From Malacoraja senta (taxonomy: Eukaryota), in the NCBI GenBank assembly GCA_038087875.1, contig CM075994.1, positions 4,838,001 through 4,902,000 on the forward strand: a stretch of DNA of 64,000 nucleotides, in the 5' to 3' direction. The position numbers were made by a program, and so were the translations under genes. Position 1 is the first letter of the stretch; each line of letters starts with the position of its first letter. The notes under the pieces are model-generated. The model searched no databases. It worked only from the letters and a program-made list of their open reading frames with translations, and was not told where the DNA came from. Shown here piece after piece: positions 4,101 to 64,000 of this stretch.

Positions 4101-4494
4101 GAGAATAGAGATTGTATTATTTATAATAAATTCATATAACATACACAAACATTAAGAAATTTCTAAAATAACCCAATGCGGCGAAAGTTTCAGGAGAACA
4201 CACCCCTCCATCGCATATCGATTCACACTGCCCTATTCACTCCGAATAATAGTCCCTCAAATGCAGGCCACAATTGACGCAGATAATGCACTAAGTAACA
4301 AGTAGTAAGTGTGGATACAAGACACTGCAAATGCTTTAATGTCGAGCAAGAAAAGCTGCGAGGAGAATCAGTTTATGCGTCGTCTACCTATTTTCCTCAC
4401 TGGTTTGACGAAGCGACCCGCATCGGCAAGGTTGCTGTCCATTCCCCTTGTCGGAAATTGGCTTGAGATGTTACGGACATTTTCAACCTCTCAC

Positions 4495-16887: not shown

Positions 16888-19800
16888 ATTGGTGACCCAG
16901 TCGATCCAAAAAGTTTATTTTGGATGGTATTCTGGACTAACCAGTTTACTTCGATGTCAATCTAGCCCAGCAGAACGCAGTTTCGCAAAACCTGCCGTTT
17001 TCTGTACGGCAGAATCTGACTTATGGTTTCAACACATTGAAGCTCAATTCCATGTTCGCCACATTATCGTCATTTTCAACAACCACCTGCCGAGAGCAAG
17101 TACGAGGGCCTTAAGACATTTCTATTGCGTACTTTTGGGCTCAGCCGCCGCGAAAGGGCCTCCAGGAACCTGCACCTGGATGGCCTTAGTGACCGAAACC
17201 CCTCTCTAAAGATGATCGAAATGCTCTCACGAATGGACGGTCATCGGCCTTGCCTTCTCTTTGAGAAGGCGTTCCTCGAACAGATGTCGGACGACATCCG
17301 ACTGTTCCTCGCCTCTAGTGATTTCAACGACCGCCAGCATTTAGCCGAAAGAGCGGACGTGCTGTGGCTAGCTACGTAGCAGGATTATGCTTCCATCCGT
17401 CGGACGTCTGCAGCTCCGCGTCGTCCTCGACGGCAGTTTCCAACTTCCACCGACAGCAGCGCGCAGCAAACGGCAACAGCGGATACCGGTAAGCGTTCGT
17501 GGTGTTGTTACCACCATCACTGAGATGCTGATGGCGGCCGATGCCTTTCTCCTTGCCAGCAACCGAGAATAGCTGCGGCCTATCGCCAGTAGAGGCTATC
17601 GCGGTCGGCCAGAATAATCGTCTCAGATCTGGGACCGTCGTTCCGGGCTCCGGTTCCTTGCGACACGGGAACAGAGATCAGCATATTACCTCCGTCCGGA
17701 GTGGACACCCGTTCAGGTAAGCATGACCCTAACCGCCGTCAATGGCAGCACCATCCGGACAGAAAGAGTCCGCACATTTCCGCTTATTTCCGTCTCCTGA
17801 CATTTCACGTGGCCGTTCACCTTCGCCGACGTCTGCCAACAGTGTCTACTCTCTGTTCGTAGAAGATAAGGGGCAACGTCTCGAACAATCGGAGACCCTC
17901 CAATCAAACTAATTGCGGCCTGCGGTGCCGAACTCCCTACACCGCGATTCGGTGTCGTGAGATGACAATGTATATGCACAAAATCCGGCCGATTTCTCCG
18001 ACATCCTGTCTCATCAGTACAATTCGGCTAAACACAAACACGGCGTCGGCACCACATTCCCAGCACCGGCCGACGGCAGCACGCAAGGGCACGCAATCTC
18101 CCGTCTGACAAGCTGCAGCTTACCAAGGAGGAATTCCAGCAAATGGAAGAGATGGGTATTGTGCGGCCCTCCGCATACCATGGGCCTACGCACCACATTT
18201 GGTCCCCATAGCGTCCGGCGGCTGCAGACATGCGGGGAATCCCGCCGCCTCACCAAATACACGACAACCGACCGCTACCCTGCCCCTCACATACAAAAGT
18301 GCACGGCCCATATGTACGGGGCGAAATACTTTTCCAAAATTGATCTAGTGCGCGGCTACCACGAGATCCCTGTCCACCCGGATGGCGTGCCCAAACCGCC
18401 ATTATCACCACTCTCGAACTATTTGAATTTCTGCAAATGCCTTTTGGCCTCAATAAACGCCGCCCAATCTTTTCGGCGGCTTATGGACATGGCCGGCCGG
18501 GTGTTATATTTTTATTCATCTACCTCGATGACCATCTTGTCGCCAGGCGATCTCTTCAAGCGTGCTGTGCGCACCACCGCTTACTTTGCCAGCGCCTCAA
18601 TGACCATGGCCTCGCCATTAATCCAGCCCACTGTCAGTTTGGCCTTATCTCGCTTACCTTTCTCGGTCATCATGCCACCGTACATGGACCAATCCCGCTC
18701 CCCGCCAAGGTGGGACCATTCGACAGTTTCTCGGCCAGCCACATTGAAGGTTCTCCAGGAGTTCGTTGGTATGATAAACTTGTACCGTCGTTTCCTACCT
18801 GCGGCGGCCGGATTATTCGAACATAGTTTAAGTGTCTGGCAGGCAAGCAGCGGGATGTGGTGTGGGATGTCGAAACCAAGGCCGCGTTTGACAGCGCGAA
18901 GAGCAATGCAAGAGCGGTAGGGACATTGGCCTTTGCAAGCTTGTGCATCCGCGGGCCAATGTCCCTACCGCTCTCACAATGGACGCTTCTGACACTGGAG
19001 TTGTGGGAGGGGGTGACCTCCAACGACTGATTGACTATCGCTTGCAGCCACTTGCCTTTTTCAGCCGACGCCTGCGACTTCCAGAGAGAAAATACAGCGC
19101 GCTCGATCGTGAGCTCCTATGCTTCTAACTGCTGTCCGTCATTTCCCTTATTTCGCCTTACCTTCGCCTTCGTTAAAGTGTCCGATCCCTGGTCCGCATG
19201 GCAACAGCGACAATAGAAGTCCATTTACGGTATCCAACACGTGGCGGATAAGAACACCTTAGTTGCTGACGCCTTGTCCTGTACTGCCTTCAATGCCCTT
19301 CTGTATTTAGCTCCGGTAATCAACTATTCAAGCCTGGCCACCGTACAACGGGACGACGACGTGATGCTATCATGTCGCACTGGCATTTCAGGTTTGATTC
19401 TGGAGGACATCCCGCTTGGATCCACTGACATCGCCGTCCTCTGCGATGTCTCCATTGGGCAACCGCGACCCATTGTCACTAAAGCTTGGCGACGTCGTAT
19501 TTTTGATTCAGTACACGGGTGAGCCCATGCTTCTATCCGGGCAACTATAGCGCTGATGGCGGACAAATCTGTGGCACGGGTACGTAAGCAACTCGGTTCC
19601 TGGGCCAGCGCCTGCGTCCACTGCCAAACATCCAAAGTCCAACGTCACGTAAGAGCGCCTCTGCAGGATGTTGCCCTCCCACAATACCGTTTCGACTACA
19701 TCCACATCGATCTACTGCGCCCCCTGCCGCCGTACCGCGATGTCACCCACCTGCTCACTATTGCGGAGCGGTTTAAACGACGACCCGATGCCGTTCCACT

Positions 19801-20015
19801 CGCAGATACCTCAGCAGCAACATATGCACGTGCACTCACAGTCCACTGGGTTGCTCGTTTCCGTGTTCCAGCGGCCATCCCGTTTAACGGGGCTGCCCAG
19901 TTCACCTCTGCACTGTGGTCGGCATGGCCCAACTGCTCGGCGCTCAGCGGCACAACAAAACGGCAGACCACACTCAGTCCTACGGTATGGTGGAACGGTT
20001 GCACCGGCTCCTGAA

Positions 20016-20782
20016 GTAAAGTCGTCAAGTCAAGTCACTTTTATTTGTATAGCACATTTAAAAAAACAACTCTCGTTGACCAAAGTGCTTTACATTGGAG
20101 GAGGTACTAACGTTATACAACAGAGGTTCATATATTTACTACATAAATAAATACATACATATAGCCCTCCTTCAGAGGACGTCAATAAAGGCTTTAGAGT
20201 AAAGATGAGTTTTAAGTCTCGACTTAAAATAGTCGATGGAGGGGGCAGTTCTGACGAGAAGATGGATGCTGTTCCACAGTCTAGCAGCTGCAACCGCAAA
20301 GGCCCTGTCGCCCCTGAGCATATGCCTAGACCGCGGGATGTTCAGTAACCCCAAGTCGGACGATCTGAGGGACCTGGAGGTGGTGTGGTGGGTAAGCAGA
20401 CTTTTGATGTAGGTGGGGGCAAGCCCGTTAAGGGCTTTGTAAACATAAAGAAGGATTTGGAAATGTATTCGGAACCGCAAAAGGAGCCAGTGGAGAGAGG
20501 CCAGAATCGGGGTGATGTGGTCCCTTTTTCGGGTGCCCGTCAGGAGTCTCGCTGCGGCGTTTTGGAGCAATTGCAGGCGGGACAGAGAAGATTGACTGAT
20601 GCCAGTGCAAACGGAATGCAGTAAACGAGGCGGGAGGAGATAAATGTGTGGATGATATTTACGAGGTCGTAAAATTGGAGGATTTGTTTTATTTTAGCTA
20701 TCGTCCGACGCTGGAAGAAGCTAGCTTTACCACGGCATTGACATGTTTGTCAATTTCAATGCTGAGTCAAATATCACGCTAA
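20016..20782 (-). mobile_element. L2 LINE 3' fragment inserted in the Gypsy integrase
   Basis: ORF LQNAAARLLTG..DHITPILASLHWL..FKSRLKTHL; (gactt)n tail on the minus strand; same family as 58120-59146. Confidence 0.9.
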
Positions 20783-29902: not shown

Positions 29903-32900
29903 TTACACCTGTTTTGCACCATATGTTTCCAAAAAGACGACAAATGGAGACCAACTCGTTATGAATTGATCAAATGTATCTATTAGGAGGAATCGCATTT
30001 CCTCAAGATGTGCGGTATCCAACATACTTGCAATCCACATTTTGAGCGTTGGTATTGGTGTATTTTTCCAAAATTTCAATATTAATTTTTTTGCTATTAT
30101 TAAACCATAATTAACAATTGACTTTTGAGTTGAGCTCAATTTGTTCCCGTCTTCCATTACCCCAAATATAATCAATTCATTATTGGGTTCCATTTTTGTC
30201 TTAAATAGTTTTGTAAATATTTCGAAAATATCACTCCAAAATCCATGAAGTTTTATACAAGAAACAAATGAGTGTGTTATAGTTGCGTCTTGGGTTAAAC
30301 ATTTATCGCAAATGGGCGATATATTTGGATACAATTTATTTAATCTAGTTTTTGAGTAATATAATCTATGTAAAATTTTAAATTGGATTAGGTTATGTCT
30401 TGCGTTAATCGAAAACTTGTGAATGTATGTCAAATACTTTTCCCATGTAGCCTTCGTAATTTTTATCAATAATTCCCGTTCCAACTCTTCTCTAATTACC
30501 TCGGTCACAGGTAAATCTATATTTAAGATACTATTATATAAATATGATATTAATTTTTGTGTATCAGCTTTTATATTCATTACTTCTTCTAGTAAATCAG
30601 GAGTTATTTTTTGATATCCCTGTATGTATGTCTTCAAAAAATTACAAATCTGAAAATATTTAAAATAATGAGTGTTTTTCAGTTTAAATTTTAATTGTAA
30701 TTTTTGAAATGATAATAAATCTCCAATTTCATACATGTCCCCGATCCTTTTAATTCCTAAACTTTCCCATTGATTATATATTTTATCCATCATAGATGGT
30801 TTAAATAAAGGATTATTCGCTATCGGTGTGAACAATGATAGGTTTCTTAATTTTAAGGATAATTTTATTTGTTTCCATATTCTTATTGTATCTTGTGTAA
30901 ATTGGGTTTTTCTTATATATTGTATTGTTCATTTTTTTCGGGGAGAAGAGGATTGTTCCTATATTACAAGGATAACAATCCTCTTTCTACATTTTTATCC
31001 ATTCTGTCTGTTGAGTTGAACTATCCAACCAGTAAATTATATTCTTAATATGTATTGCCCAATAGTAATACAAAAAATTAGGGAGTGAAAGTCCCCCGAT
31101 ATCTTTTGGTTCACATAAGTGTTCTTTTTTAATTCTATGTGATTTATAATCCCAAACAAAATTAGTAATATTAGCGTTCAGTTTAGAAAAAAATATTTTG
31201 GTACATATACTGGTATAGATTGAAATAGGTATAATAACTGTGGTAGGAAGCTCATTTTAATAGCATTTTTATTCTGCCTATTAATGATAAAGGGAGTGTT
31301 TTCCAAAATGTTATCATTATATTACGTTTATTTATTAAGGGTATAAAATTGCCATTGAATAAAGCTTTATGTTTTCTAGTAATCTGAATACCCAAATATT
31401 TGAATTTTTCTGTTGCTATTTTAAAGGGGAATTTCAATAAGTGTGTGGATTCTTGAGGTGTTAACGTCATGATTTCACTTTTGTTCCAGTTTATTCTATA
31501 TCCAGAAAAGGACCCAAATTCCTCTATTACATTTAATAAATTTGGTATGCTCGTTTGTGAATTTGTTATATATAACAAAATATCGTCTGCATACAATGAA
31601 ATTTTATTATTTGAGTCCCTAGTATTATAACCCTGAATATTCGGATGGCTTCTTATACTTTCAGCCAGAGGTTCTATCATAAGGGCAAATAGCAGGGGTG
31701 ATAAAGCACATCCCTGCTTATTAGCCCTTGATAATTGAATTTTTTGTGATAACATGCTGTTAGCTAATATTCTTGCCATCGGTTTATCATATAATAATTT
31801 CACCCATGCAATAAAATTCTCTCCCAAATTAAATTTTTGTAATACTTTGTATAAATACTGTCATTCTACCTGATCAAATGCTTTCTCTGCGTCCAAAGAA
31901 ATAATTGCTAAGTCTTTTTCCTCCACTTTATGTTAGTACATTATATTAAACAGGCGTCTCAAATTATTAAATGAATATCTTTTGGCTATAAACCCCGTTT
32001 GATCAGGGTTTATCAATTTACTAATATATTTGCTTAGTCTTCTAGCTAAAGTCTTTGCTAGAATTTTCTGGTCTGTATTTAAAAGTGATATAGCTCTATA
32101 TGAGCCCGGTTCCTCTAGATCTTTATCTTTCTTTGGAATAAGCGTAATAGTCGATTCTGCTAATGTTTCAGGTTGTTTATTTTCTTTAAAAACGTAAGTA
32201 TATAAATTAAATAGATAGGGGGTCGTTATCTCATGAAACCTTTTATAAAATTCATTACTAAAACCATCTGGTCCCGGTGTCTTACCATTTTTCAGCGATT
32301 TTATTGTTTCACCTATTTCTTCGATTGTAATTTGCGCTCCTAGTTCTTCTTGTTCCAAAAGGTCAAGTTTTGGTAGACTACATTTATCTAAAAAGTTTGT
32401 AATTTTACTATCTTCTGTTTTGGTTTTTGATGTGTATAAATTTTGAAAAAATTGAACAAATCTTTTATTGATATCTTTAGGTAGTGTTAGTAATTCACCA
32501 TTCTCGGATTTAATTTTATTTATAGTATTTTCATTTTCCTGTTTTTTCAATTGACGCGCCAACAGCTTATGTGGTTTGTCACCAAACTCAAAATGTTCCT
32601 GTTTTGTAATTTGGAATAATCTTATTACTCTTGCCGAGAGAATTCGGTTAAGTTTAAATTTCAGTAGTATTATCTTATTATGTTTATCTATAGTGGGATC
32701 TTTAGCATTATCTAACTCTAACTGTCTTATTTCTTGTTCTAACAGCATCTGTTCTGTTTTATTCTTCTTATTTTGAAAAATTTCATGTGAAATTATAATT
32801 CCTCTAATAAATGCTTTAAAAGTTTCCCATATTAAAGAAGGTGAGGTACCTGGTGTATCATTTATCTCAAAAAATGATATAAATTGTTGTTTCAAATATT

Positions 32901-33713
32901 GATAACCCTGTAAGTCATTTAATATATATGTGTTAAACCTCCAAAAAAAATTATTTCCCGGCATTCCTTCAAATTTTACTAAAAAAGACAATGGAGAGTG
33001 ATCAGAAATACTTCTGATATGGTAAGTTGGGTTAATTATGTATGGCATTAATTTCCTATCCACTAAAAAATAATAAATTATTGAGTATGTTTTATGTACC
33101 GAAGATAAAACGAGTATTCCCTTCCTGCTGGGTTAGCAGATCTCCATACATCTGTTATGTTAGTATTTTTTATATATGTATTTAGAAATTCACTAGTCTT
33201 AGATTTTATATTATTCCCTCTTTGTTTTGCTGATTTGTCTAAGTATGGATCTAAAACACAGTTGAAATCCCCTCCTATTATGACATTTTGATAATTAAAC
33301 TCCAGTATTATATCTATAATTTTCTCAAAGAATTGAGGGTTATCAAAATTCGGAGCGTAAATATTTACCATAGTTATTGGGGTAGCATAAATTTCTCCCG
33401 AAACAATGATATACCTTCCCTCTTTATCTGATATAGTATTCTTTAATTTGAACGGTATACGTTTTCGAATAAGAATAGCCGTACCTCTAGATTTAGAAGT
33501 AAATGACGAATAATATGTTTGGCCTATCCACTTCGCCTTTAATCTAATTTGTGTTTCCTGTTTCATGAGAGTTTCTTGCAAGTAAATTATGTCGCTTTTC
33601 AAAGATTTTAGGTGAGCAAAAATGTTACCCCTCTTTATTGGTTCATTGGCACCCCTTATATTCCAACTACAGGATGTGATTCCTCCATTCTCTATTTGCC
33701 TATCGTCTTGCAT
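29903..33713 (-). pseudogene. L1 ORF2 (APE endonuclease, RT, C-terminal cysteine-rich domain), frameshifted
   Basis: SWNIRG, LQET, IIGGDFN, SDH, KTPGPDGF, YRAISLLNTDQKILAK, QGCALSPLLF, YADD, FKYLGI, CDKC..H..C; split over at least four ORFs. Confidence 0.95.
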
Positions 33714-34672
33714 TGTATATCAAAGTGATATTCTTGAAACATATGGTGCAAACAAATACCTCCGTGTTCTGGACGTTGGGTGGTCATTCCAAATTTTTAA
33801 GTTTACATTACATCTCCTTCTCCAAAAGTGCCTTAGATAAAGCAAGAAAAGTTGTGATTTACAATTAATTAAACACAAGCTAAGTTAATACAAATTTGTA
33901 TAGTGATTTAAAAAAAAAGTGAAATTAAGGTATCTAAAAGCAGGTACCTTAAAGACAAATAGCCACCTAAGGTGGCGTAAGAATTATAGACTTCCGTTGA
34001 TGTTATTTTACAGTGAGCCCCAATCGCTTATTAACACCTCGTAAAAAAACTACAAACCGTCTCATATCTTGTTTATTCTTGTATAACTTTATCAAACTAG
34101 CGTTAGTAAAATGCCCCCCCCCCAAAAAAAAAAAATTATAATTATAATAACAAACATACGCAAAGATAAAATATTGAAAAGTTTAAAAAAAAAATAATGT
34201 AATTAAACCCCAAATCGAAATATAAACCACAACCTATTCTCATTTCTATAAGTATTTGTACCGTACCAATTTATCTAACCAGCTACCCTACAAGCAGGTA
34301 CCGAGGGGTTAACCTCATTCCTGGATTTTTTCCAAGTTTATGTTGCGTTCCCACTCAAAAAGAAAGAAAACATGTTAGTAATGTTATAGACATTTTGGTT
34401 AATTACAATTTATAAGCAATGGTTTATTCATGATTATTCATATTTACTACACACACTCACAAGTCATTAGTTTTGTTAAAGTTAGTTAGTTAATTGTAAT
34501 TAGCATATAATAGTTAAATATTAATGTTATCTCGTTCTTTGTACAAGAGCTTTTCATTCAAGGTTAAGCAATGTTCTGAAATACATTCCATACAGATAAG
34601 CTCCGCAACTGTATGAAAAATCCGCCAGTTCCAGCTCCATCTTAAAAATTAAAAAGTTCCTTGTTCTTTCCT

Positions 34673-35696
34673 TTAGTCGTCTTCTTCCGATGTTTCCGAT
34701 GCTTTCCTCATGATATCTTCTGCATATTTAAATGCTTTTTCTGGGTCCGTAAATGAGCGCGCATTTCCCTTATAAGTAATTTTCATTTTTGCTGGGAAAA
34801 CAACTCCATATCTGATTTTAGAAATACCCCTCAATATGTTTCTTGTCGGTGTAAACAAGTTCATTCTCTGGACAATCTCTGGAGGATAATCACGGAAAAA
34901 TCGGATCTTTTCCCCACGATATATCAAATTTTCACCATGAACAATCTTCTTCAGTATAGATTCCACTGAAGAAATATCAAGAAATTTCACAATTATCTGT
35001 CGGAGCAGCATTTATGCCTCTTGAGACACGTCCAACTCGTTGAACAGTATCTATTCTTAGTTCTTCCGGCAGTTTAAAAACCTCTTTGAGTAATTCAGTA
35101 ACGAAAGTACGTGTTTGAGATACATGTTCTTCTCGTACTTCTCTTACGCCAACGATTCTCAAATTCTGCCTTCTCGCTCTCGCTTCCAAGTCCAAACATT
35201 TGTCAGTCATTCTTGCCAGCTTTTCTGCTTCATCTTTCTTTGATTTTTTCAGACTGTTTACTTCCATGATCATCTCTTTCATATAACTTTCCATCTCTTC
35301 CATTCTCTCGTCAATGTTGTCCATCTTAGCATTTACACCAACAAGGTTCTTATTATAATCCTTTTCAACTCTAACAATTTCTGAGTTAAGTTTTTTATCA
35401 AACTCATTATGTTGCTTCTTCAGCTCCTTTAACTCATCACAGGCACCATCAATTTTATGAGAGAATATTTCCATATTATTCTCCATACTCTTAATTGTCG
35501 TAGTAATTTCTACAAACATTTCCTTTACCTCTAGTTCTTTCTTTCCTCCTTTTGTAGCCATTTCCAGCACAACTCCTTGGCTATCGGACTCCTCCTCGGA
35601 GCCTTCTTCAGTTGTTTGCAGACTATCCAAATCACTTTTCAGCTTGAGGCTTATAGCGGCTTTTTTTGGTGCGCGTGAACAAGTCCTCTTGCTCAT
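34673..35696 (-). pseudogene. L1 ORF1 (coiled coil, RRM, CTD), one frameshift near 35000
   Basis: Coiled coil followed by LEARARRQNLRIVGVRE, RQIIVKFL, KIRFFRDYP, FPAKMKITY. Confidence 0.92.
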
Positions 35697-37995: not shown

Positions 37996-38994
37996 GATTT
38001 AGAGACTTCTCTAACTTCGAATAGCCCTTGCTTTCCCATCCCACTCCATCTCTTCCCCTTCGCAGTTTTCCCACCTGTCTTAATGTCTCCGAGTACATTC
38101 TATCTCTGTCCTGCCCACTCACCTGACCTCAGTATAAATAAGGTTCTCGACTGGTAACATCACCCATTCCTCTCTCCATAGATGCTGCCTGTCGCACTAT
38201 AAATTTAATTTGTTTGACTTTATCTTGAGACTTTAGAAATAGTGCGTGGAAACAAGCCCTTTCAGGCATCGACTGCGCACCGACCTGATTTTTAGGTTGC
38301 CAAACGACAGTTTAGCTGGTCACTTAAGACTGTTTGCATGCCGCGTGCGAATTGGTGCTCGGATGAAGTGCGTAATTACCAGTCGGAATTATGCTCAGTG
38401 AGCATTCACATATTATTTCTGCTTCTTATAAAATCACAAACTAAACATATTCACCAATCAAGACATGATATATACCACAATGACATGCAGCAAACTTATA
38501 ATACAATATCTGAACTCGTTTTACACATTGCAATTAATGCAATTTCTATTAGTTCTTTCCACTTCCAAACAGAAATGTGGTTGGATGATTCAGCGTATGA
38601 TCAACCTGTGTCAATAAATCCTGGACCATGGTAACATATATGCTTAACCTTGCACACTACAGATTGATTCAAGCATGTTTTCTGTGAAGGTCCGAACACT
38701 ACCATACAGAAACACTCTCGCTTCCCACATATTTTTTTCATAACAAAATATACAGGTTGCAAGGACATTTCTAAAGGCATTTTATGACAATAGCTGTTAA
38801 AACCGACTATACCCATGTGACAGGCTAAACATTACACTAACTGAAAAGAGATGGCCAAAGGGCATAACTGAAGCAAATTAAATATTAAAAGTGTCAAAAC
38901 GCCAACTTACCGGACATTCAGATTAGATGTACGTGTTGTGAACAGCAATGAAGTTATCCAGTTTGTGCGCACCAGATTTAAAAAAAAATATTGA

Positions 38995-39899
38995 TGTAGG
39001 GGTTGATTTCCCTTCACTTCGGGCCCAACTGCCCGAAAAAGGGGTTCCCCTAGGTTCTAGACCTCGGAATTATGGTGGGATATGATAAGAGGTTGACTTG
39101 ACCAGAGCGTGCTGATGAGAGAAAACAGAAACCAAGACGGACTCAAAGCAAGTCTAAAATTTACAGGCTTTATTAAACAATAAGAAATCGAATCTTACCA
39201 ACACTACATAATATGTGACTAAACTTATGCTTTAAACTAAAACTATGGAAAGAAAATTATCGGGCACGTCGTAAAACTTACTTTGACAATATTTTACTCC
39301 CCTTTCCCTTTAGTTACTCAACCTCCTATCCCATTTCGGGAATTTCTCCAGGTCACCAGGATACTCACAGCTAAGTCGATGCAGGCTCACGAGCTGTCCA
39401 GTAGAGCAAAAAGAGAGCAAGAAGGGCAGGAAGAGCGGAAAAGAACAGAGAGCGAGTTCTGGCTGGACTCCTGTTTTATACCTGAGATTCCTTTGAAACC
39501 CCCAGGTGGTCCTCTGTATAAAAGGGGTTATTTTGATGTTTCCCAGTTTCGATCTGGCATGAACAATATGCTTCCGATGATAAGGGGTTTGCTAATGTCA
39601 TGATCCCTCAGCCTGATCGTTATCATCCTCGATGGTGATAGTGCTCTGCTGGCCAGTTTACCACCGTCTGCTGCGGCTTGGTTCCTTCCTTTGTGTATCG
39701 AAGTAAATCTCGTTATCTCCGTCTCAGCCTTACCTTTTCACACCGTTGTGTGATGTCCAAGCCCACAGGCCAGACGGGTTGATTCTTTCTGTGGATTGCG
39801 GGTCTTTCCGTTGCAGCCAGCAAATCTGTCTTTTTAAAATGTCCATGACCTTATCCAAGTTCTTCCATAATTTTGGAGGATTTGCCCCAATAACTTACA
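38995..39899 (-). repeat. 3' LTR (~905 bp)
   Basis: TG..CA termini; purine-rich TAGGGGCA directly upstream on the minus strand; TATAAAA near 39474-39480; AATAAA near 39168-39173; 39738-39899 is repeated at 46756-46917. Confidence 0.9.
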
Positions 39900-40184
39900 T
39901 GCCCCTACGACACGTCCAGGTTTGCACGGACCGTATCGATTGACAAAGTTAGTGGGCAATCCTCCAGCCTCAAGAGCTGTAAACACTCCTGGTGAGAAGG
40001 TTAAATTATGTACCCCGAAAGCCCCCTTAATCACTAAACTAGGCCCTCGAAGCACATTAACTTACACTATATACCTTTTACTTTACATCAATCCCACAAA
40101 CCATACAGTACCCTCACGACCATTCCCTGAAAATGCAGGGATTACAACATATGTACAAAACTATTGCACTAGAGTACAGCCATT

Positions 40185-41830
40185 TTACAGTGATGGGGCG
40201 TCGTTACGGTGACGTCGGGCGGCTCGATTTACGAGCTGTTGTAATTTGGCCATACTCCTCCGCCTTTTAAATTTGCAATTAATGCATAGCAAATACAGCA
40301 CAATTGGTCGTGCCGAGGTTCCCATCACAGCGATTCTTACGACCACTCCCATTATGGTGTGATTGGATTTTCCGCAATCCACCGGTACCGGGTAGGCCTC
40401 GGAGGCCACACGAAGCTGACAAGGACTCAACGTGCTGTTATAAGGGTGTAGCGCTGCTAGGTGCTGGTTTCTTATCCAGGAGGGGACCCGACCTTGCCTC
40501 AGGTCTTCCAGGTTGCTCCTCCCCTCCCCCAACAACCACGCACCACACAGCCCACACACCTCATTCTTTGCAGCCTGATCGGACGCATTCCGGTCCTCTT
40601 TAATCAAAGCGTTTATCGTTTTTGCATGTGTCTCCAATTGTGCTACGATTTCCTTTAGATGTAGAGTCATTGCCACCTCTTCATGCAGTCCCGATCCTAC
40701 CACCGCATTTTCCTCCCCCAGAACCTTTCGTAACTGGCCCTTCAACTGATTGATCTGCAGGGCCAGTTCTACGTTGTCCATGCTATTAGTAATAGACGTC
40801 CCCGTGTTAAATGCTGTAAACCCGTCGTTAACCTCCCCTCGTCATTGCCTACCGGACCCCAAACTGAAATCCCCTCCCCCGCGGTACATCTCTTCTATGT
40901 CTATGTCCCCAAAATCCAGGTTGTGGAATTTCTGGAACATGTCTTTTAGCAGGGCCTGATATAATAATTCCGTCTCGCGGGGGCACCATGCAGGTAACCG
41001 CACTTCAGTCAAATTTAATACTACTGAGGCCATAGCGTAATGCACTCCCTCGTACAGCACCCTTTTGGTTGGGACATGTGCTAACCCATTCTCCGGCCCT
41101 TTGGTGGTGGTTGGACAGTTGTGAGGGTCGATCGGTTGGGCTGTGGGTAGGGGCTTCTTCACCTGAACCAGCAATTCTGTGGCTTTTACTGTCATCCCAG
41201 CCCTGGGGGGCACAGATGCCTGCCCACTGCGGTCCCAATCTGTCCAGTTCCCGGGGTTCTGCCACACTTGACGAAAGTGATTGATGCCCCTACCGGACAC
41301 AACTTGGCAGTCCCCCATAGACATAAATAAAGCCCCTGATCATAGGCCCACCATTTGTCCCAACATACAGTGATCCCTCCCGGTGACCCCGTGATGGTCC
41401 GGTAGGTATAATTGTCCAGTCTTTCCCAGTCCGAGGATCGATCCCTCATGTCCGAGCTCAGCTTCCTGAGCCACCACCATCTCCCCAAAAGAACGTCCCC
41501 CTTACAGGTTAAACACACCCGCCTGCCCTCAGTCACCCTAACCCGGTCGGTAGCCATCTGTATCTCGGCACAGGGTATGGATGCTTCCCCGTAGGCGAAG
41601 CTCCTGTGGCTGGAGAACCTGGTCGAGTTCGACCCCAGCCATCCAGGCCATGTCCCCTCGTGGGAGTATCCGGCCTGGCTATCCGCTACCAGGTTTCCTT
41701 GCCCAGTAGACACGAGGGGTGCTATGTCCCCTGAGCACCCATATACGATGGACTCCTCCGTTTCCCCGCGACGCGCCACGCACATCCGGAGGCACATCAT
41801 TGCCATCATCTAGACGGCGGGGCTACCCAT
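40185..41830 (-). pseudogene. env: env-like glycoprotein gene (signal peptide, Ig-like domain, furin site, fusion peptide and heptad repeat), disrupted and probably internally deleted
   Basis: ATG at 41830 right after a splice acceptor; MGSPAV*MMAMMCLRMCVA; frameshift near 41325; R-Q-*-R|GEVNDGFTAFNTGTSITNSMDNVELALQINQL; several N-x-S/T sites; short hydrophobic stretch followed by KFKRRR. Confidence 0.75.
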
Positions 41831-41851
41831 CTGGAAAACAAAGCGAAAAAC
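41831..41851 (-). promoter_or_regulatory. Splice acceptor for subgenomic env mRNA
   Basis: Minus strand GTTTTTCGCTTTGTTTTCCAG|ATG directly before the env start. Confidence 0.7.
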
Positions 41852-42070
41852 CTCCTTGCCTCCACAAAGCTATCTGCCTAATAATGGCATTTGAGGCTTT
41901 GATTTGTCTGTTGTGGTCCACTTTACCACAGCTCATCCCTTCGATCCTGTACTGTCTGTCCCTGTACTCCCTTGTAGCTATACAAAACCTTATCTCTAGT
42001 TACGCTAACTACATCTACTTACACAAAAAACAATGCTATATACAACGCCACCCGTCTCCGGTTGGCCAAC

Positions 42071-45000
42071 TCATAACCGGTCCCCGTCATGCTGGGGCCA
42101 CCCCTCTGGTGGGCCCACCCGTGCAGGCCAGAACTCCTCCTGTTGAGGGGCCTGACTGCCCCTCGCCTCCCTTTGCACTACGGGGTTTTGAGTTACCCCT
42201 ACGTTCCCTGTGGAGACTGGGCTCCCTCCAGCTGCACTCCGTAGTGCCCTGTTTCGGCCGCTCACCTTCCTGGCCCTCCTGTGGCCGGCCCTAGCCCTAG
42301 GTTTAATTAGGGATGGGGACCACCTTATAGGTGGTTTAGTGACCCTGTCACTCCTACGTCTGACCGGGGGTTCCCACACCAGAGGTGATACCTCCATCTC
42401 CTCTGTTTCTGCTAGTTCTGCCGCTCTTAGGCAGTCTACGGTACCTGCCTGTGGAGGGCTGGAGTCAACCTCCTTCTCCGCTGCTTCCAGTCCTCGCCCT
42501 GGGACAAAGCCGGCTACTTCAGGCTGACTACCTGTGGACTCGCCTGGCTCCACTATGGTTTCCACATCAACCCGGGTCTGTTCTTGATCCTGTTCTCTGA
42601 CATGTACCCCTTTCTTACTTTTCCCTGCCCTTGTGGGGTCAAACAATTTGCACTGGTTGATGTGGAACCATTTGACTTTACGGGGAATCTGAATGGCATA
42701 CACCATGGGACTGGCTTTGTCCGCTATGTTGTATGGGCCCGCATACAAGGGTACAAACACCCCTACCCTAGCATATCTCCTGACCATTACCTGGTCTCCC
42801 ACTGCCCACTCGCAATGCCTGCGAGGTTCCAGCAGTAGCTTGTTTCTTTGGTGCTAGGCCCCCATGTATCTGGCTGCCTGCCAGTGAACCTGCCTAAGTT
42901 GTTCAAATAGCCTCTTGGCAAACTTGTCCCGGTTCACTTCCCTGAGCTGTCCCTCTGTTAGGGCTGGGACCATAACGTGCATAGGCGTTCTCATGACCCG
43001 GCCTGTTATAAGCTCATGGGGAGAGTACCCCGTACTCCTGGACTGGCTGGCTTGAATCCCCATAAGGACCAGGGGTAAAACCTCCACCCACCGGTTGGGT
43101 GAGTCCCCTGTTTCCTTCCTTATCCTTTCCTTTATTGTCCGGTTCAACCGCTCCACCGGACCCGAGGACTGGGGGTTGTAGGCCACATGCCACTTGGCCT
43201 TGATGCCCAGTATTCTAAGGGTGGACTGCATGACCTATCCTGTGAAATGGCTCCCCTGATCTGACTCCACACACTGTGGGAGTCCCTACCTGGTGAACAC
43301 CTCGCTCACCAGGATTTTTGCCGTACCCATTGCGGTGGCTGCTCTGCAAGGGAAGGCCTCTACCCATTTTGAGAACACATCCACAAGGACTAAGTAGTAC
43401 TTGTAACCCCCTTGTGCGGTTGGAAGGGGTCCGATGTAGTCGATTTGAATAGACTGCCATGGCACCTCCACCCTCCTGATGTGTCACTTAGAAACCTTCC
43501 TTTTCTGGGGGTCTGGATTGTTTGCTGCGCAAACCAGACAGCTTGCACTAAAGTGGCGAACATGTTCCCTGAGCCCTGGCCACCATCCTGCCATCTCTAC
43601 TCGCTGCCATGTGGTCTCTGGCCCGGGGTGACCTGCCCCTGGACCCTCATGGGCTAGTTTTAAAAATTCCCTTCTGTACAGGGAAGGCACTACCCACTTA
43701 TCTCCCTTGAATAACATGCCTTCCTTTACTGCCATGTCTTTACCCCCATACGGTCCCTCTATTTTCTCCTGCCTGCAAATGGCTGCTGAGGCAGCCTTTA
43801 AAATAGGGTCTTGTGCCTGGAGCGTGGTCAGGTCCGGAGCCAAAACCACTCCCGCACTCTCCTTTTCCCGAGGCCGCTCCCTGGCTGCAGCTACCTGTCC
43901 TTCCTCATAGGGGTCCCATGCTTTCCCACTCCTGGCTCCTTCCCTGGCCAAGCAATCCGCCCTCTGATTTCCTTTGCCCCGTGGCTCCGTTTTGGAATGG
44001 GCCTTCACCTTATGGATATATCTATCCCCACCCTTCTCTACGGCTGCTACAATCCTCTCTAATAGGGGTTTAGTGGTCAGGGGCTTCCCGTCCGATGAAG
44101 TGTACCCTCGGCGGGACCAGGTGGCCAAATATTCCGTGCAGGAATTGGATGTGAACATGCTGTCCGAACATATGGTGTATGGAGTGGGGAAACGCTCGGG
44201 ATGGGTCACCACGTACATTACCGCCGCCAGCTCGGCCTGCTGGGCGCTTAACGTATGTGGGAGTTTAAGAGCTAGGGCTATCTCTGCCTCGGGGTCCCAG
44301 ATCCCACAGCCCGTGAGCCGTATGCCCTCGGACACGAAACTGGACCCGTCCACGTATATTTCCCTACCCGTGGGATGTAACCCTGCTCAAAGCCCAAAGT
44401 CCACCTCCCATACCCCTTCCACCGAGCAATGGTGTGGCTCCCCTGGGTACACCAAATTGTCTGCGAGCTTGGGCTCACATAACCTCTCAACCCGTAAGGC
44501 CGTTTGGGAAAGGAGAAGGGTCCAGCGAGTGATCCTCGCACTGCTAACGGTCCCATCCTTAATCCGACCGTCCAGCAGCATCTGGGTTGGGGTATGGTGG
44601 GTCAGGAGGGATATGGGGGACATTCTTATGAAGACCTGTACCCTCTTCATTGCCCAGTATGTGGCTAGCAGGTGCCGCTCACTGTTTGAATAGGACCTTT
44701 CTAACTCTGTGAGGACTCTGGAGGAATACACCACTGGCCTTAACTTGCCGTGCCGTTCCTGCGCTCAGGCCATCGCTGCTTGCGGCTACCTCCAGGAAAA
44801 AATCCTCCCTGCAGTCAATGGCTCCCAGAGCTGGGGCCTTTTGCAGGTCCCGCTTCAAATAGATGAATGCCGACTCGCACTGCTCATCCCACTCCCACTA
44901 TACCCCTTTGCGTAGCAGCCGGCATAGTCCTCTATAAAGTCTCGGCAGTAGCCCGTGACTCCCAGAAATGATCTGCCCCCCCCCTCCCACGTCCGTTGGG

Positions 45001-46269
45001 ACTGTGAGTTCCTGCACTGCCTGCCTTCTTGCTGTATCGATACCCCTTTCTCCGGCCCTAAGGGTCAGTCCCAAGAACTTTACCTCTTGTAACCCTATCT
45101 GTGCCTTATTGGGATTTATTTTTAAACCGCTCTTACAGAGCAGCTCCAGCAGTTCATTTACTAGGGGCCCATGTTCCTCACTGGTGTCCGTGAATAGCAA
45201 AATATCGTCCACATACTGGACGATCTTGTGGGGCTCACTAAATTATTTTAAACATTCTGCCATACATTGGTGGAAAATACTGGGGCTATTGTGGAACCCT
45301 TGGGGAAGACAGTTCGACGTGTACTGTTGCCCCTTGAATGTGAAAACAAATTTGTACTGGTCTTCCTTCCTGACCGGGATAGACCAGAAACCGTTCGAGA
45401 TGTCTAGCACCGTAAATAGAGATGCAGACGCTGGAATTTCCGCTAATAGGTCTGCTACAGCTGCCACATTTGGTGCGCAAGCCGGAATATTCTTATTCAG
45501 GACCCTATAATCTACCGTGGCCCTCCAGGAATTGTGTGGCTTCCGTATGGGCCAGAGCGGTGAGTTCACGTGGGTGGCTATGGGCCTCAAAACGCCTTGC
45601 TTAACCAGTGAACTCAGGGCGACTTCGAAGTCAGCCTCCGCCTCTCGGGGAAATCTATACTGTTTCTGCGGTCGGGACATGGGATCCCCGTCTATCCTGA
45701 CCTCTGTTCCTGTGACCCTTCCACAGTCGTGCTTGTGAGTAGCGAATGCGGCCAAATTTCATTTAACATGGCCTCGATACTCGGTCGGGGCTGCCTCACT
45801 AGGACCTCTAGATCGTACCCCTCTCTGGGCTTCACGACACACAGAGCCCCTCTCTCTGATGCCCTCTCGATGACCATTAACTCCTTCTCTCTCTCAGCCC
45901 CTTCTCCTGCTATGCCCCACAAACAGTGGTTTCTCAGGTCCACCAGGACCTGGTGGGCCACTATAAAGTCGGCGCCTAGTATCCCCGTTCCCTCCTGCTC
46001 CCAACTCATCATCACGCATTTCCACTGCGCCTGGAGTGCTCCTAATTGAATGGACAAAACCCTGTCTTCTCGTATCCTGTAAAACCGACAGGACTATAGG
46101 GTACCCCACTAGTTAGAGGGAATGTACCGGGATTGTCCGTGTGGACAATAGTACTGGAAGCACCTGTGTCCAGCAGGTAACTCCCGACCACATCCTGGAC
46201 CTTCATCTTGACCCAGGATCTCCCACATGGGCCATACTTTAACGGGCATAGGAATGTGGGCTGTTTCAC
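42071..46269 (-). pseudogene. pol: pol: protease, RT, degenerate RNase H/tether, second RNase H, integrase with GPY/F motif and long C-terminal tail
   Basis: LLDTGASST; NSPLWPIRK..WRATVDYR..LDISNGFW..LPQGF..YVDDILL; YSSRVL..ERSYSNSERHLLA; YVDGS..SAQQAELAAV..SDS..VKAH..GNQRAD; HHCC; IDYIGPLP..VDVFSKW..SDQGSHF..PQSSGPVERLN. Confidence 0.92.
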
Positions 46270-46275
46270 TGGAGG

Positions 46276-46755
46276 TCATAAAGGGGCCGGGGGTGCGGAT
46301 ACGGGTGCGCCCTGGCCTGTTGCCATGGCTACCTGTCCGGACCCTCCCGCCTTTGACTGCAAATAGGTAATTAGATCTCTTACATCTATTGTTACTTCCG
46401 GGGCTGGGTCTGCTGTTACCGGAGTCCTATCCCCCACTGCTCTACTTGGGTTTCTGTACTCCCTCTTGTAATGCCCGGCCTTCCCACACCCGTAGCACAA
46501 CAGCCTCATCTCGGAAGATGTCTGGGTACCTTCCTGTTTCCACTGCCTCCTTTTGGGGGGTGCCGGTACTATTTCGTGCACCTTGCCCTTAAAGGGCTTC
46601 TCCTCACTTCTCTCCCCATTGCGGTATGCAAGGGTGAGCTTCCTGATCACCTCCGCCTCGTTAAGGTTTGGGTCAGCTGGGTCGAACCAGTGCTCGACCT
46701 TTGCCCTAACTCGCGGGAGGCATTTCGCCACCAGAGTCTTCAGCCAGTTATCTGT
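46276..46755 (-). pseudogene. gag: gag C-terminal remnant with zinc knuckle
   Basis: CYGCGKAGHYKREY knuckle; the N-terminal part was removed by the deletion that also took the PBS and most of the 5' LTR. Confidence 0.8.
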
Positions 46756-46917
46756 TCACACCGTTGTGTGATGTCCAAGTCCACAGGCCAGACGGGTTGA
46801 TTCTTTATGTGGATTGCGGGTCTTTCCGTTGCAGCCAGCAAATCTGTCTTTTTAAAATGTCCATGTCCTTATCCAAGTTCTTCCATAATTTTGGAGGATT
46901 TGCCCCAATAACGTACA
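46756..46917 (-). repeat. Truncated 5' LTR (outer ~160 bp of U3 only)
   Basis: Near-identical to 39738-39899 (about 4 substitutions by eye). Confidence 0.92.
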
Positions 46918-47329
46918 TTGATAAACGCTGTTTCCATCATTCGCACTTCAGAATTCACGTTAAAATGTCCAGTGAAATATCTCATGGCCAAATTTGTGAT
47001 GTATATGACGGACTGTAGAAGTAAAACCTGGATAAATCCAAAGTATAGTTGTGAATGATGCTCATTAAATAACTACAGTAATGATACTCCATATTATGAG
47101 CAATTACTTGCCGTTAAAATGAATTCTGTAATAACGTGTCAACGGTAGCAGTGACAATCGAACACTACGGTTTTAATGGTTCACGTGTTTACAATTTAAT
47201 TAATCCATCTTTATGGACTAAAACAAATAATAACATTGGGAATGAAAACACATTTGATTGCATTCCGTTATCAAACATAGTCAATGTTCGCTCTGAAGAC
47301 ATTTCGAGCACAATAGGGCCAGGGAGCGG

Positions 47330-48630
47330 GTGGTGTGAATGAGTGCGGGGTGGATAGATGGCGGGGGGGTTGAAAATGTAATCGGTGCGGAATGGATGGA
47401 TTGAGGAAGGTGAATTAGCTGGTGTCGGTTGTAGTATATAAAATTGTGAGGGGAGAGCACGGGGGATGTCAGTGGTGTTGCATGCGGGGTACAGTATGAG
47501 ATGGATGGGGGGGGGGGGGGGGTTCAGTACAGGGTGAATGGGGGATTCAGTACAGGATGAATGGAGGTAGACAAAAATGCTGGAGAAACTCACCGGGTGA
47601 AGCAGCATCTATGGAGCGAAGGAAAAATGCAACGTTTCGGGTCGAGACCTTTCTTCAGACTGTTCCCCACTTCTTGTTGAATGGGGGTTCAGTACAGGAT
47701 GGATGGGGGAATCAGCGCAGGATGAATGGAGAGATCAGTACAGGAAGAATGGGGGAGGGGCAGATCAGTGTGCATCGGACAGTCTGTGCAGGATGAATGG
47801 GGAATCACTACAGGATGAATGAAGGGATCAGTACAGGATGAGTGGCGGATCAGGACAAGATGAATGGAGGGTTCAGCACAGGATGAATAGGAGGTTCAGG
47901 ACGGGAAGAATGGGGATAGACAAAAGTGCTGGAGGAACTCAGCGGTGACGCAGCATTTATGGAGCGCAGGAAATAGGCAACGTTTCGGGACGAGACCCTT
48001 CTTCAGACTGTTCCCCCCGTTCTTCTTGAATGGGTGTGTTAGTACAGGATGGATATGGGGGGGTGGGTCAGCGCACTAGGAATGGGAGGATCTGTACATG
48101 ATGAATGGGCGGGTCGGTACAGTGTAAATCGAGGGGGTTGGGTCTGTGCAGGATGAATGTTGCATCACTACAGGATGAATGAGGGGGTTAGCACATGATG
48201 AAAGGGGATAAGTACAGGGTGAATGGGGGGGGCAGTAAAATATGAATGGGGGATCAGTAGAAGATGAATGGGGAATCAGTACAGGATGAATGAGGGGTTC
48301 AGTATAGGATCAATGGGGATCAGTACATGATGAATGAGCGGATCAGTACATGATTAATGAGAGGCTCAGTACAGGATGAATGGAGGGTTCAGTAAAAGAT
48401 GATTGGGAAGATCATTACAGGATGGGTGGGGGGATGTCGGTGCAGGGTAAATGTAGAGTGGGTCAGTACGGGATGAATGGGCGGATCAATACAGGATGGA
48501 TGGGGGGGGGCAGTGCAGGATGGATGGGGGTGGCAGGAGAATCAATGCGAGGTGTATAGGGTGATCAGCGCAGGATGAATAGATGGTGGAGGTAGATGGG
48601 GAGTGGAGCACAGGGGATGTCAGGTTGGGT
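47330..48630. repeat. G-rich minisatellite, unit about 22-25 bp (cagtacaggatgaatggggggat)
   Basis: Dozens of degenerate copies; two embedded Penelope terminal fragments. Confidence 0.9.
47629..47662 (-). ncRNA. Minimal hammerhead ribozyme-like motif in a Penelope terminal fragment
   Basis: Minus strand CUGAAGA-aaGGUC-uc-GACC-c-GAAAC-GUU; paralogues at 47977-48010, 23282-23311, 37873-37900 and 29349-29378. Confidence 0.6.
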
Positions 48631-58119: not shown

Positions 58120-59146
58120 AACACTTCTCCCTGTATATGCTCCCCTTAGGACGTCATTCAAAGGCACGGCATTTCCTTAAATTGCTATGCAGACGGTACA
58201 CAACTCTATCCCCCCTGACGCCCAGAGCCAATCTACTTAACCTTATCCACTGCCTCCAGGATATAAAGTGATGGATGGCCCATAACTTCCTCCAACTAAT
58301 CGAGAGTACGTCTGAGGTTATCCTTCCCGGCCCCTCGATGAAAACGATAGCAGGCAGCCTTGGAAGCCTTACCCCTTACTCAAACCACACGTCAAAATCT
58401 TTGGCGTGATATTTGACTCAGCGTTGAAATTTGTCAAGCCAGTCAATGTCGTGATAAAAGCTAGCTTCTTCCATCTTCGGATGATAGATAAAATAAAACA
58501 ATTCCTTCAGTTTGACGACCTCGAAAAGATTAGCCACACATTTATTTCCTCCCGCCTCGATTACAGCAACTCCCTTTACACTTGCATCAGCCAATCTTCA
58601 CGGTCCCGCCTAGATCTGCTCCAAAACGCCGCAGCGAGACTCCAAACGGGCAGCCGAAAAAGGGACGACATCATTCCGATTCTGGCCTCTCTCCACTGGC
58701 TCCCTGTGCGGCTCCGAATACATTTTAAGATCCTTCATGGGCTTGCCCCCACCTACATCAAAATTCTGCGTACCCACCAAACCACCTCCAGCTCCCTCAG
58801 ATCCGTCGACTTGGGGTTACAGTACATCCCGCGGTCTAGGCATAAGCTCAGGAGCGACCACGCCTTAGCGGTTGCAGCTCCTAGACTGTGGAACAGCGTC
58901 CCTCTTCCCATCAGAACTGCCCCCTCTATCGACTCTTTTAAGTCTAGACTTAAAACTCATCTCTACTCTCAAGCCTTTCTTGACGTCCTCTGAAGGAGGG
59001 CTCTATGTATGTATTTATGTATGTACTTAATCTATTAACCACTGTTGTATAACGTTAGTACCTCCACCAATGTAAAGAACTTTGGTCAACGAGATTTCTT
59101 TTTTAAATGTGCTATAGAAATAAAAGTGACTTGACTTGACTTGACT
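58120..59146 (+). mobile_element. L2 LINE 3' fragment
   Basis: tgctatgcagacggtacacaactc (YAD.TQL), FISSRLDYSNSL, LQNAAAR, LHWLPV, FKSRLKTHL; (gactt)n tail. Confidence 0.9.
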
Positions 59147-62161: not shown

Positions 62162-63702
62162 ATATAACCATATAACCATATAACCATAACAGCACGGAAA
62201 CAGGCCATCTCGGCCCTTCAAGTCCGTGCCGAACATTTTTTTTTTTTTTTTTTTAATTAAAAATAAATACTTCCCCCTAGTCCCATCTACCTGCACTCAG
62301 ACCATAACCCTCCATTCATTTCCCGTCCATATACCCATCCAATCTATTTTAAAGGATAACATCGAACCTGCCTCCACCACTTCCACTGGAAGCTCATTCC
62401 ACACAGCTACCACTCCCTGAGTAAAGAAGTTCCCCCTAATGTTCCCCCTAAACTTCTGTCCCTTAATTCTCAAGTCATGTCCCCTTGTTTGAATCTTCCC
62501 TACTCTCAATGGGAAAAGCTTATCCACGTCCACTCTGTCTAACCCGCTCATAATTTAAAAGACCTCTATCAAGTCCCCTCTTAACCTTCTGCGCTCCAAA
62601 GAATACAGACCTAACTTGTTCAACCTTTCTCTGTAACTTAGTTGCTGAAACCCAGGCAACATTCTAGTAAATCTCCTCTGTACTCTCTCTATTTTGTTGA
62701 CATCCTTCCTATAATTAGGCGACCAAAACTGTACTCCATACTCCAGAATTGGCCTCACCAATGCCTTGTACAATTTTAACATTACATCCCAACTTCTATA
62801 TTCAATGCTCTGATTTATAAAGGCCAGCACACCAAAAGCTTTCTTTACCACCCTATCTACATGAGATTCCACCTTCAGGGAACTATGCACAGTTATTCCT
62901 AGATCCCTCTGTTCAACTGCGTTCCTCAATTCGCTACCATTTACCGTGTACGTCCTATTTTGATTTGTCCTGCCGAGATGTAGCACCTCACATTAGTCAG
63001 CATTAAACTCCATCTGCCATCTTTCAGCCCACTCTTCCAAATGGCCTAAATCTCTCTGTAGACTTTGAAAATCTACTTCATTATCCACAACACCACCTAT
63101 CTTAGTATCAACTGCATACTTACTAATCCAATTTTCCACACCATCATCCAGATCATTGATGTACATGACAAACAACAGTGGACCCAACACAGACCCCTGA
63201 GGCACCCCACTTGTCACCGGCCTCCAACCTGACAAACAGCCATCCACCATTACACTCTGGCATCTCCCATTCAGCCACTGTTGAATCCATCTTGCTACTC
63301 CACCATTAATACCCAACAATTGAATCTTCTTAACCAACCTTCCATGAGGAACCTTGTCAAAGGCCTTACTGAAGTCCATATAGACAACATCCACTGCTTT
63401 ACCCTCATCAATTTCCCTAGTAACCTCTTCGAAAAATTCAAGAAGTTTAGTCAAGCATGACCTTCCAGGCACAAATCCATGTTGACTGTTCCTAATCAGA
63501 CCCTGCTTATCCAGATGCTTATATATATTATCTTTAAGTATCCTTTCCATTAATTTGCCCACCACTGACGTCAAACTAACAGGTCTATAATTGCTAGGTT
63601 TACTCTTCGAACCCTTTTTAAACAACGGAACAACATGCGCAGTACGCCAATCCTCCGGCACTATTCCCGTTTCTAATGACATTTGAAATATTTCTGTCAT
63701 AG
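62162..63702 (-). mobile_element. Younger 5'-truncated CR1 LINE with RT domain
   Basis: NYRPVSLTSVVGK, QHGF, DFSKAFDKVPH, GVPQGSVLGP, YAVDTK, ERRRLRGDLIE; (ataaccat)n tail. Confidence 0.95.
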
Positions 63703-64000
63703 CTGTAGATCAGTGCATGTTCCTTTAACAGTGACCTCACCACTACTAACCACTCCCCATTGTCTCTCCTATAATGGTAAGGTTCCCACCTCCAGCCCTC
63801 TCTCTAGCTTCAGTGATGAACACGGACAGCTATTGCATGGTGTGTGTTAGTGATTTAATAAACCATCAGTAAAAGACTCTGTGTAGGAACCAAGTCATTT
63901 TACATGGTGTCGAAGTGGTAGACCCGCGTCTCCTGTTTATCGGTTTTTCTTTTTATTCTTTGCTTTCTCCCAGTTGTTCACGTCTCCCCCCGTTTTCATT

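Follow-up and report, generated by a model that had tools for sequence, protein, structure and literature searches.

Which retroviral lineage gave rise to the provirus on the minus strand at positions 38995-46917 of a 64,000-nucleotide stretch of Malacoraja senta DNA (contig CM075994.1; hereafter, the window)? The element is flanked by TTGA on both sides and ends in TG..CA, and a sequence-only reading had called it a lokiretrovirus in a cartilaginous fish because its pol encodes dual RNase H domains and its env an F-type protein. The single RAG1 of the host genome shares 97% identity with a skate protein (Amblyraja radiata cluster); among the 120 rows listed, it reaches 89-90% with a stingray and an electric ray, 87-88% with sharks and no more than 81% with other vertebrates. 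The host is accordingly a skate, in line with the elasmobranch host that had been proposed. The accompanying statement that lokiretrovirus hosts did not include cartilaginous fishes agrees with Fig. S1 in the supplement of PMC7947760, where 0 of 6 cartilaginous genomes are positive. Using reverse transcriptase (RT) phylogeny, structure prediction of the envelope protein and a genome-wide survey of related copies, we found evidence against the lokiretrovirus assignment. The provirus is a dead, defective copy of a skate endogenous retrovirus (ERV) family that is probably a basal canonical retrovirus, of the grade related to snakehead retrovirus (SnRV), with an F-type env and kin in sharks and frogs.

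Placement of the family by reverse transcriptase

Reference viruses were taken from IMG/VR, and their presumptive gamma, foamy and delta labels were assigned from motifs, genome lengths and tree grouping. The SnRV reference matches the SnRV RT row of the lokiretrovirus paper and the published length of 10,688 nt, the walleye dermal sarcoma virus (WDSV) reference was identified by WDSV motifs, and three lokiretrovirus loci from a motif scan closely match rows of the lokiretrovirus paper (PMC7947760), which defines the lineage, a sister to canonical retroviruses, by RT. These three loci, in metagenome contigs that are presumably fish DNA, carry gag-pol-env. A scan of viral contigs for the lokiretrovirus motif gave 0 matches.

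The RT of the skate family contains LPQGF and QYVDD, as in canonical retroviruses, versus CPFGY in 3 of 3 lokiretrovirus rows, and the same LPQG/CPFG split is visible in the alignment of PMC7947760. By phmmer, this RT scored 286-303 bits against frog and other relatives, 216 against SnRV, 183 against lokiretroviruses and 143-176 against foamy, epsilon and gamma viruses. In an RT tree of 37 rows, which remained after 8 near-duplicate gamma and foamy rows were removed from 45, lokiretroviruses and Gypsy elements were split from the family, SnRV, foamy viruses and orthoretroviruses with support of 100/98, and the family joined its frog and other relatives at 88/82. A smaller tree of 25 rows recovered the same split at 93/98. 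Furthermore, approximately unbiased (AU) tests rejected trees in which the family was forced to join the lokiretroviruses (p 0.040, 0.0058 and 0.040).

The same RT lies outside the foamy clade, and the family has a zinc knuckle, unlike spumaviruses; it lies outside the class I (gamma/epsilon) clade, and no gamma-type CX6CC is present; and it lies outside Metaviridae, as the Gypsy rows form their own clade at 100/99. Odin elements are characterized by dual RNase H, an RT sister to that of lokiretroviruses and the absence of env, which the family possesses. The family instead agrees with canonical retroviruses: its RT falls on the retroviral side of the split from lokiretroviruses and Gypsy elements, its order is long terminal repeat (LTR)-gag-pol-env-LTR, and it has a tRNA primer site. 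The RT and integrase phylogeny that had been proposed as a check gave a divided answer, with RT outside the lokiretrovirus, Gypsy and class I clades and integrase rejecting neither side.

Fold and distribution of the envelope protein

One env sequence had no match in Pfam or PDB, PF00523 was matched by 0 of 42 env relatives (one relative matched Baculo_F at E 0.001), and direct BLAST of family env against SnRV and other reference env found nothing under E 0.4. A single-sequence fold of the env core was unusable, with a predicted local distance difference test (pLDDT) score of 36. A model of a sibling env was built from a 40-row alignment and had a mean pLDDT of 63, with values mostly of 80-96 in the beta-rich core and low values in the N-terminal 200 residues. 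The best Foldseek matches of this model were the F proteins of human parainfluenza virus 3 (hPIV3) and respiratory syncytial virus (E 1.7e-9). VIA-align comparisons gave Z 13.1 with hPIV3 F (root-mean-square deviation (rmsd) 13.2, 324 aligned) and Z 12.3 with Langya F (rmsd 6.8, 333 aligned), the top 13 matches in an unbiased fold search of 48,161 chains were all F proteins or foamy Env, and the top ESM Atlas match was Fusion_gly at 0.93 (206 features). These results predict that the family Env is a class I fusion protein with the fold of paramyxovirus and pneumovirus F, as the F-type label had anticipated. The full-length sibling env has a basic cleavage site at 328 and one transmembrane (TM) segment near 725-755, and CX6CC was not found in it; the separate env with an R-x-x-R site, a Gly/Thr/Ala-rich peptide, a heptad region and no CX6CC was thus described correctly.

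Residues of about 90-175 contain an immunoglobulin (Ig)-like Cys, Trp and D-x-G-x-Y-x-C pattern, and UniRef labels one shark env relative 'Ig-like'. Weighing against such a domain are the weakness of its matches (Pfam Ig_3 E 0.027; Atlas 0.85) and the low pLDDT of the region; the wide fold search listed no Ig chain, its list being filled by the F domain. We conclude that an Ig-like domain probably precedes the F fold in Env. The start of SnRV env shows an Ig-like Cys/Trp pattern by eye.

The ratio of nonsynonymous to synonymous polymorphism (pN/pS) in env drops from 0.66 to 0.30 with rising pair divergence. Shared variants have a ratio of 0.38 (50 synonymous, 64 not; p 1e-6 versus neutral) and private variants 0.58 (difference p 0.09), in a sample of the 30 best-scoring of 151 env loci in which stop codons were skipped, so that the ratio is biased slightly down. 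The falling ratio indicates that env is under purifying selection, which fits spread by infection.

A profile of the family env was run on 106 reading frames. It matched env of lokiretroviruses (E 1e-18 and 5e-16), WDSV (3e-9), foamy virus (8e-7) and SnRV (2e-6), and gamma and delta env only above E 0.08. The best domains score 15-57 bits, against no more than 4.2 for reversed and block-shuffled controls and 2-3 for two gamma env, and env identity to lokiretroviruses, SnRV, WDSV and foamy virus is 14-20% throughout. Structural matches in BFVD include env of walleye epidermal hyperplasia virus 1 (WEHV1) and WDSV, a PDB profile search lists foamy Env (8OZH, E 4e-4), and VIA-align with foamy 8RM0 gave Z 8.4 (rmsd 5.2, 275 aligned). 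By profile and predicted structure, the env of WDSV, WEHV1 and SnRV look F-type. Taken together, these results suggest one ancestral F-type retroviral envelope.

The degenerate tether and the second RNase H reported for the provirus were both identified by Pfam. However, dual RNase H occurs in all retroviruses and F-type env also in foamy viruses, SnRV and epsilonretroviruses, so neither defines lokiretroviruses, and their combination is unfit for calling one. The link between foamy Env and F is already published in PMC11468914, whose consulted sections do not mention lokiretroviruses, epsilonretroviruses or walleye viruses, which makes the present advance incremental but real. Wang and Han (PMC9040795) argued from the lack of detectable env similarity that lokiretroviruses and canonical retroviruses gained env independently, and the env survey of fish and amphibians in 10.1101/2021.11.23.469661 is confined to the gamma type. 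Because one profile from the canonical side finds the env of lokiretroviruses, SnRV, WDSV and foamy virus, it becomes possible to test how the retroviral envelope originated; TM-based env surveys would miss this abundant, young family of sharks, skates and frogs. The literature searched contains no lokiretrovirus from a cartilaginous fish, nor does it describe SnRV-related ERVs with an F-type env. This negative excludes Repbase, the data sets of PMC6001957 and PMC4422223, and Calcraft et al. 2024 (Cell), which may already hold the lineage or the SnRV/epsilon observation.

Alternative placements

Several results weigh against a canonical, SnRV-related placement. Sampling is thin, as the trees include three lokiretrovirus rows of one fish type and are without Odin, ERV-L, ERV3, ERV4, Ovex1, CmiERV, fish foamy-like, errantivirus and CGIN1 rows. 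The grouping of the family with SnRV has support of only 69/33 in the 37-row tree and was not recovered in the 25-row tree, where the family branches just outside SnRV, foamy viruses and class I without support, and two of the three AU values are borderline at 0.04. Domains other than RT score highest with lokiretroviruses: 59-66 bits versus 12 for SnRV with the tether, 208-210 versus 106-150 for others with integrase, 57 versus 15-24 with the env profile, and 575 versus 336+146 in BLAST of the whole pol. With integrase, p is 0.36 for a tree that joins the family to lokiretroviruses, 0.51 for canonical retroviruses and 0.06 for SnRV, so that neither placement is rejected; a quick RNase H tree joins lokiretroviruses and foamy viruses (90) without the family, and the integrase, RNase H and env trees are poorly resolved.

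The tether, integrase and env scores would suit a genuine lokiretrovirus, which would be the first from a cartilaginous fish, as would an integrase tree that weakly nests lokiretroviruses among relatives of the family (68/86), a lokiretrovirus locus with gag and pol likewise in frame across one stop, and the fact that the best genome match of a lokiretrovirus RT query is this family. That match is just 38-40% identical, however (145 of 15,713 candidates scored), and env is no more similar to lokiretrovirus env (17-18%) than to that of SnRV, WDSV or foamy virus. Queries with lokiretrovirus env and the lokiretrovirus RT motif had no match in the skate genome, and env relatives are present in two shark species that the lokiretrovirus paper screened and scored negative. 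Together with the RT motif and the three AU tests, these results make a lokiretrovirus very improbable. The conflict between an RT nearest SnRV and a tether, integrase and env nearest lokiretroviruses could instead reflect recombination, in which an SnRV-like retrovirus contributed RT and a lokiretrovirus contributed integrase and env, perhaps with the tether; domain shuffling is reported for these viruses in PMC7947760. We consider this unlikely, as no tree supports a lokiretrovirus integrase or env, the tether is fused to RT, so that a swap would fall within one protein, and slow evolution in both lineages (short branches) accounts for the scores without recombination. Almost no weight can be given to an env-carrying Ty3/Gypsy element of the errantivirus type, even though errantiviruses carry F-type env as well and Ty3 is by a small margin the top whole-protein PDB sequence match (241.5 versus 236.1 bits): the degenerate RNase H is followed by a cellular-type second one, murine leukaemia virus and foamy virus match from RT through RNase H in one stretch, and the Gypsy rows stand apart in the RT trees.

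We therefore favour a basal canonical retrovirus of the SnRV-related grade. More tentatively, the family may form, with its relatives in sharks and frogs, the earliest canonical branch, apart from SnRV, and keep an ancestral state in which env has the F fold, the tether is little eroded, integrase resembles that of lokiretroviruses and gag has a retrotransposon-like start inside the primer site. Env would then have been gained once before the split between lokiretroviruses and canonical retroviruses and lost in Odin, with gamma- and beta-type envelopes as later replacements. We regard this combined scenario as conceivable but somewhat doubtful; if true, a single early gain of env is the reverse of what PMC9040795 prefers.

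Organization of the family in the skate genome

The 1.94-Gb host genome yielded 151 matches to the env query and 152 to the RT query, which are lower bounds from scoring the best 150 candidates per query and correspond to at least 150 related copies. The genome-wide search for intact copies that had been suggested yielded siblings with an open pol and siblings with a 785-aa env. Ten siblings were retrieved and, having been chosen for long RT frames, are biased towards young copies, a bias that also applies to the 96.9-99.9% identity of their LTR pairs. Between the LTRs, the family layout comprises, in order, a gag of 622 aa counted from its first Met, a single TGA, a pol that continues in the gag frame (1402-1411 aa in copies where it is open) and an env of 785 aa. 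Nine of 10 siblings have the TGA that ends gag, whereas the other is out of register, and 4-bp target-site duplications were found in 7 of the 8 sibling LTR pairs examined.

The primer site starts 3 bases past the LTR and is complementary to the 3' end of a host tRNA-Arg(UCG) gene found by pattern search. Among 30 loci fetched, 29 proved to contain primer sites, of which 3 match the tRNA exactly, 3 with one difference and 23 with two. In all 29, the ATG that opens gag overlaps the first bases of the primer site, which leaves the family with almost no leader. The LTR or gag would consequently have to supply the packaging signals, and the start codon would be masked by the annealed primer.

One sibling near 292.42 Mb has gag joined straight to env without pol and is a non-autonomous derivative. 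A second, more distant subfamily has 65-67% env and about 80% RT identity, and the LTRs also group at 75-96%. Contigs of two other organisms match the internal region at about 94-99%. In a polyA run from a related organism, the internal region had a depth of 0-6 and the LTR one of 9-18, which is too thin to call expression.

A life cycle can be proposed from what was observed of the anatomy, the target-site duplications, the match to the primer, the position of the stop, selection and the side of the tree on which RT falls, together with the predicted fold. An LTR-driven transcript would encode a 622-aa Gag with a coiled-coil N-terminus and one zinc knuckle, starting at the ATG that overlaps the primer site, and, as suggested by conservation of the in-frame stop, Pol would be made through read-through of the single UGA. 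Host tRNA-Arg(UCG) would prime reverse transcription, and integration would give the 4-bp duplications. The separate 785-aa Env, with its predicted F fold, would be cut at the basic site to free the fusion peptide, and the probable Ig-like domain in front may bind the receptor. Copies would spread by infection. The env deletion of the window copy is common to three other loci (two may be duplicates), which suggests that the defective form was copied in trans, with env-deleted genomes carried along by complementation. The window copy would have lost its 5' end, including the primer site, after insertion.

Anatomy and damage of the window provirus

The features of the locus are as follows.

38991..38994, no strand: left target-site duplication TTGA (sequence match)
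38995..39899, minus: complete 3' LTR of 905 bp that has TG..CA ends, TATAAA near 39480 and AATAAA near 39174
39900..39917, minus: short purine tract preceding the 3' LTR, a putative polypurine tract by its position
40185..41830, minus: env remnant interrupted by a frameshift and two stops, with 0.7 kb deleted internally at 40305
42074..46275, minus: pol remnant with protease, RT (LPQG, YVDD), degenerate RNase H (tether), RNase H and integrase
46276..46278, minus: TGA closing gag, in frame with pol; the same TGA in siblings makes it a family feature, not damage
46279..46757, minus: 3' quarter of gag with the capsid end and one zinc knuckle (Pfam and sibling comparison)
46748..46917, minus: 5' LTR stump of 170 bp, abutting gag through a deletion of about 2.1 kb (LTR and sibling comparison)
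46918..46921, no strand: right target-site duplication TTGA (sequence match)

The duplication, the LTR of about 905 bp and the order protease-RT-degenerate RNase H-second RNase H-integrase were found as described in the sequence-only reading. It was right about the anatomy and silent on the damage, namely the 170-bp second LTR, the deletion of gag and the primer site, the loss within env, and the stops and frameshifts. Pfam scans of 15 pieces of the window gave zf-CCHC, protease, RVT_1, RT_RNaseH (tether), RNase_H, Integrase_H2C2, rve and SH3 in order on the minus strand, an order that is clean in a sibling. The first RNase H is without its first catalytic Asp, and the second retains D-E-D-H-D. 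Integrase includes HHCC, DDE and GPY/SH3, and a long tail of low complexity follows. Both pol and env are broken by many stops and several frameshifts.

Comparison with siblings shows that the deletion of about 2.1 kb took some three quarters of gag along with the primer-binding site and the rest of the 5' LTR. The env remnant retains the signal peptide, the probable Ig-like N-terminal domain, an F2-like strand, the cleavage-site region, the fusion peptide and heptad A, with its fold assigned from the natural sibling env; the deletion of about 0.7 kb removed sibling residues of about 514-746, including the Cys-rich domain and the membrane anchor. The 3' LTR is 96% identical to the LTRs of one sibling and 75-86% identical to those of others. 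The 5' stump differs from it at 6 of 170 bp (Kimura two-parameter distance 0.036), which host rates from different papers place at 8 or about 80 million years. We claim no insertion age, as the divergence of 3.6% amounts to 6 changes in 170 bp and the rates differ tenfold between papers. As a single locus, the provirus is inert and ordinary.

Both flanks (38200-38994 and 46922-47330) are high-copy repeat DNA in related genomes, which suggests that the provirus landed inside another repeat and explains why a clean empty-site joint was not found in related sequencing data. Directly past the provirus lies a GA-rich minisatellite of about 23-bp units (47490-48600). Elsewhere in the window, a near full-length L1/Tx1-type long interspersed nuclear element (LINE) occupies 29903-35696 on the minus strand, with a coiled-coil ORF1 at 34977-35696 followed by endonuclease, RT and zf-RVT in broken pieces, and decayed Gypsy-type RT and integrase-like frames lie at 17961-20150 on the plus strand (RVT_1 E 5e-5). 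Other LINE fragments, perhaps of the CR1/L2/Rex1 clades, are at 4309-5641, 9864-10644, 58316-58993 and 62555-63709, with RVT_1 matches at 4312-5067 and 62996-63709.

Relatives in sharks, skates and frogs

The env search found 43 relatives at E 0.001, and the 18 whose names were looked up include sawshark, catshark, houndshark, bamboo shark, horn shark, sevengill shark, a skate and three frogs. By pol, the closest relatives are one protein (77%) and 'NYNRIN-like' proteins of frogs (44%); the NYNRIN paper gives no placement for this clade. One frog pol model ends in an env-like start, the single case that links pol and env among the shark and frog relatives. The frog Mantella aurantiaca has many near-identical 677-aa env frames of the wider family (16 cluster members), which are a young amphibian expansion. 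Annotated Niban-like and cadherin-like proteins and an FBXO15 isoform are fused to pieces of this env family; these are probably gene-model errors, with exon capture as the alternative.

Comparison with known systems

The family resembles lokiretroviruses, also called lokiorterviruses (PMC9040795), in its tether and second RNase H, F-homologous env, basic cleavage site, lack of CX6CC and in-frame gag-pol stop, and lokiretroviruses are the best-scoring reference for its integrase and tether. It differs in an RT outside their clade (LPQG versus CPFG), in the presence of a zinc knuckle and in a 240-aa N-terminal extension of env that is missing from the lokiretrovirus env rows examined (568 aa). 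Foamy (PMC11468914) and epsilonretrovirus Env share the F-type class I fold with the family env; however, the receptor domain of foamy Env sits between the subunits, whereas the extra domain of the family is N-terminal, and in RT the family stands apart from foamy and epsilon viruses. Like the family, Repbase ERV3/ERV4 are neither class I nor class II by RT, but they are described in PMC4299795 as having 5-bp duplications, no zinc finger and no GPF/Y, in contrast to the 4-bp duplications, zinc knuckle and GPY of the family. PMC4299795 leaves SnRV- and Ovex1-related ERVs unclassified, the clade Huo as defined in PMC6001957 includes SnRV-related ERVs, and such ERVs (CmiERV lineage I) were already reported in the elephant shark, a cartilaginous fish (PMC4422223).

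The nearest named RT to the family is that of SnRV. The two differ in pol, which is only 31-33% identical, in the stop (UAG in SnRV, UGA in the family), in a primer site alike at 13 of 18 positions and in env length (about 1130 aa versus 785 aa), and the tether is much less eroded in the family. The SnRV primer site is at 85 and its gag ATG at 338, about 250 nt downstream, whereas the family ATG lies inside the primer site. SnRV nevertheless has a 625-aa gag, an in-frame gag-pol stop, a 1398-aa pol, one zinc knuckle and an env matched by the same profile, all of which liken it to the skate family.

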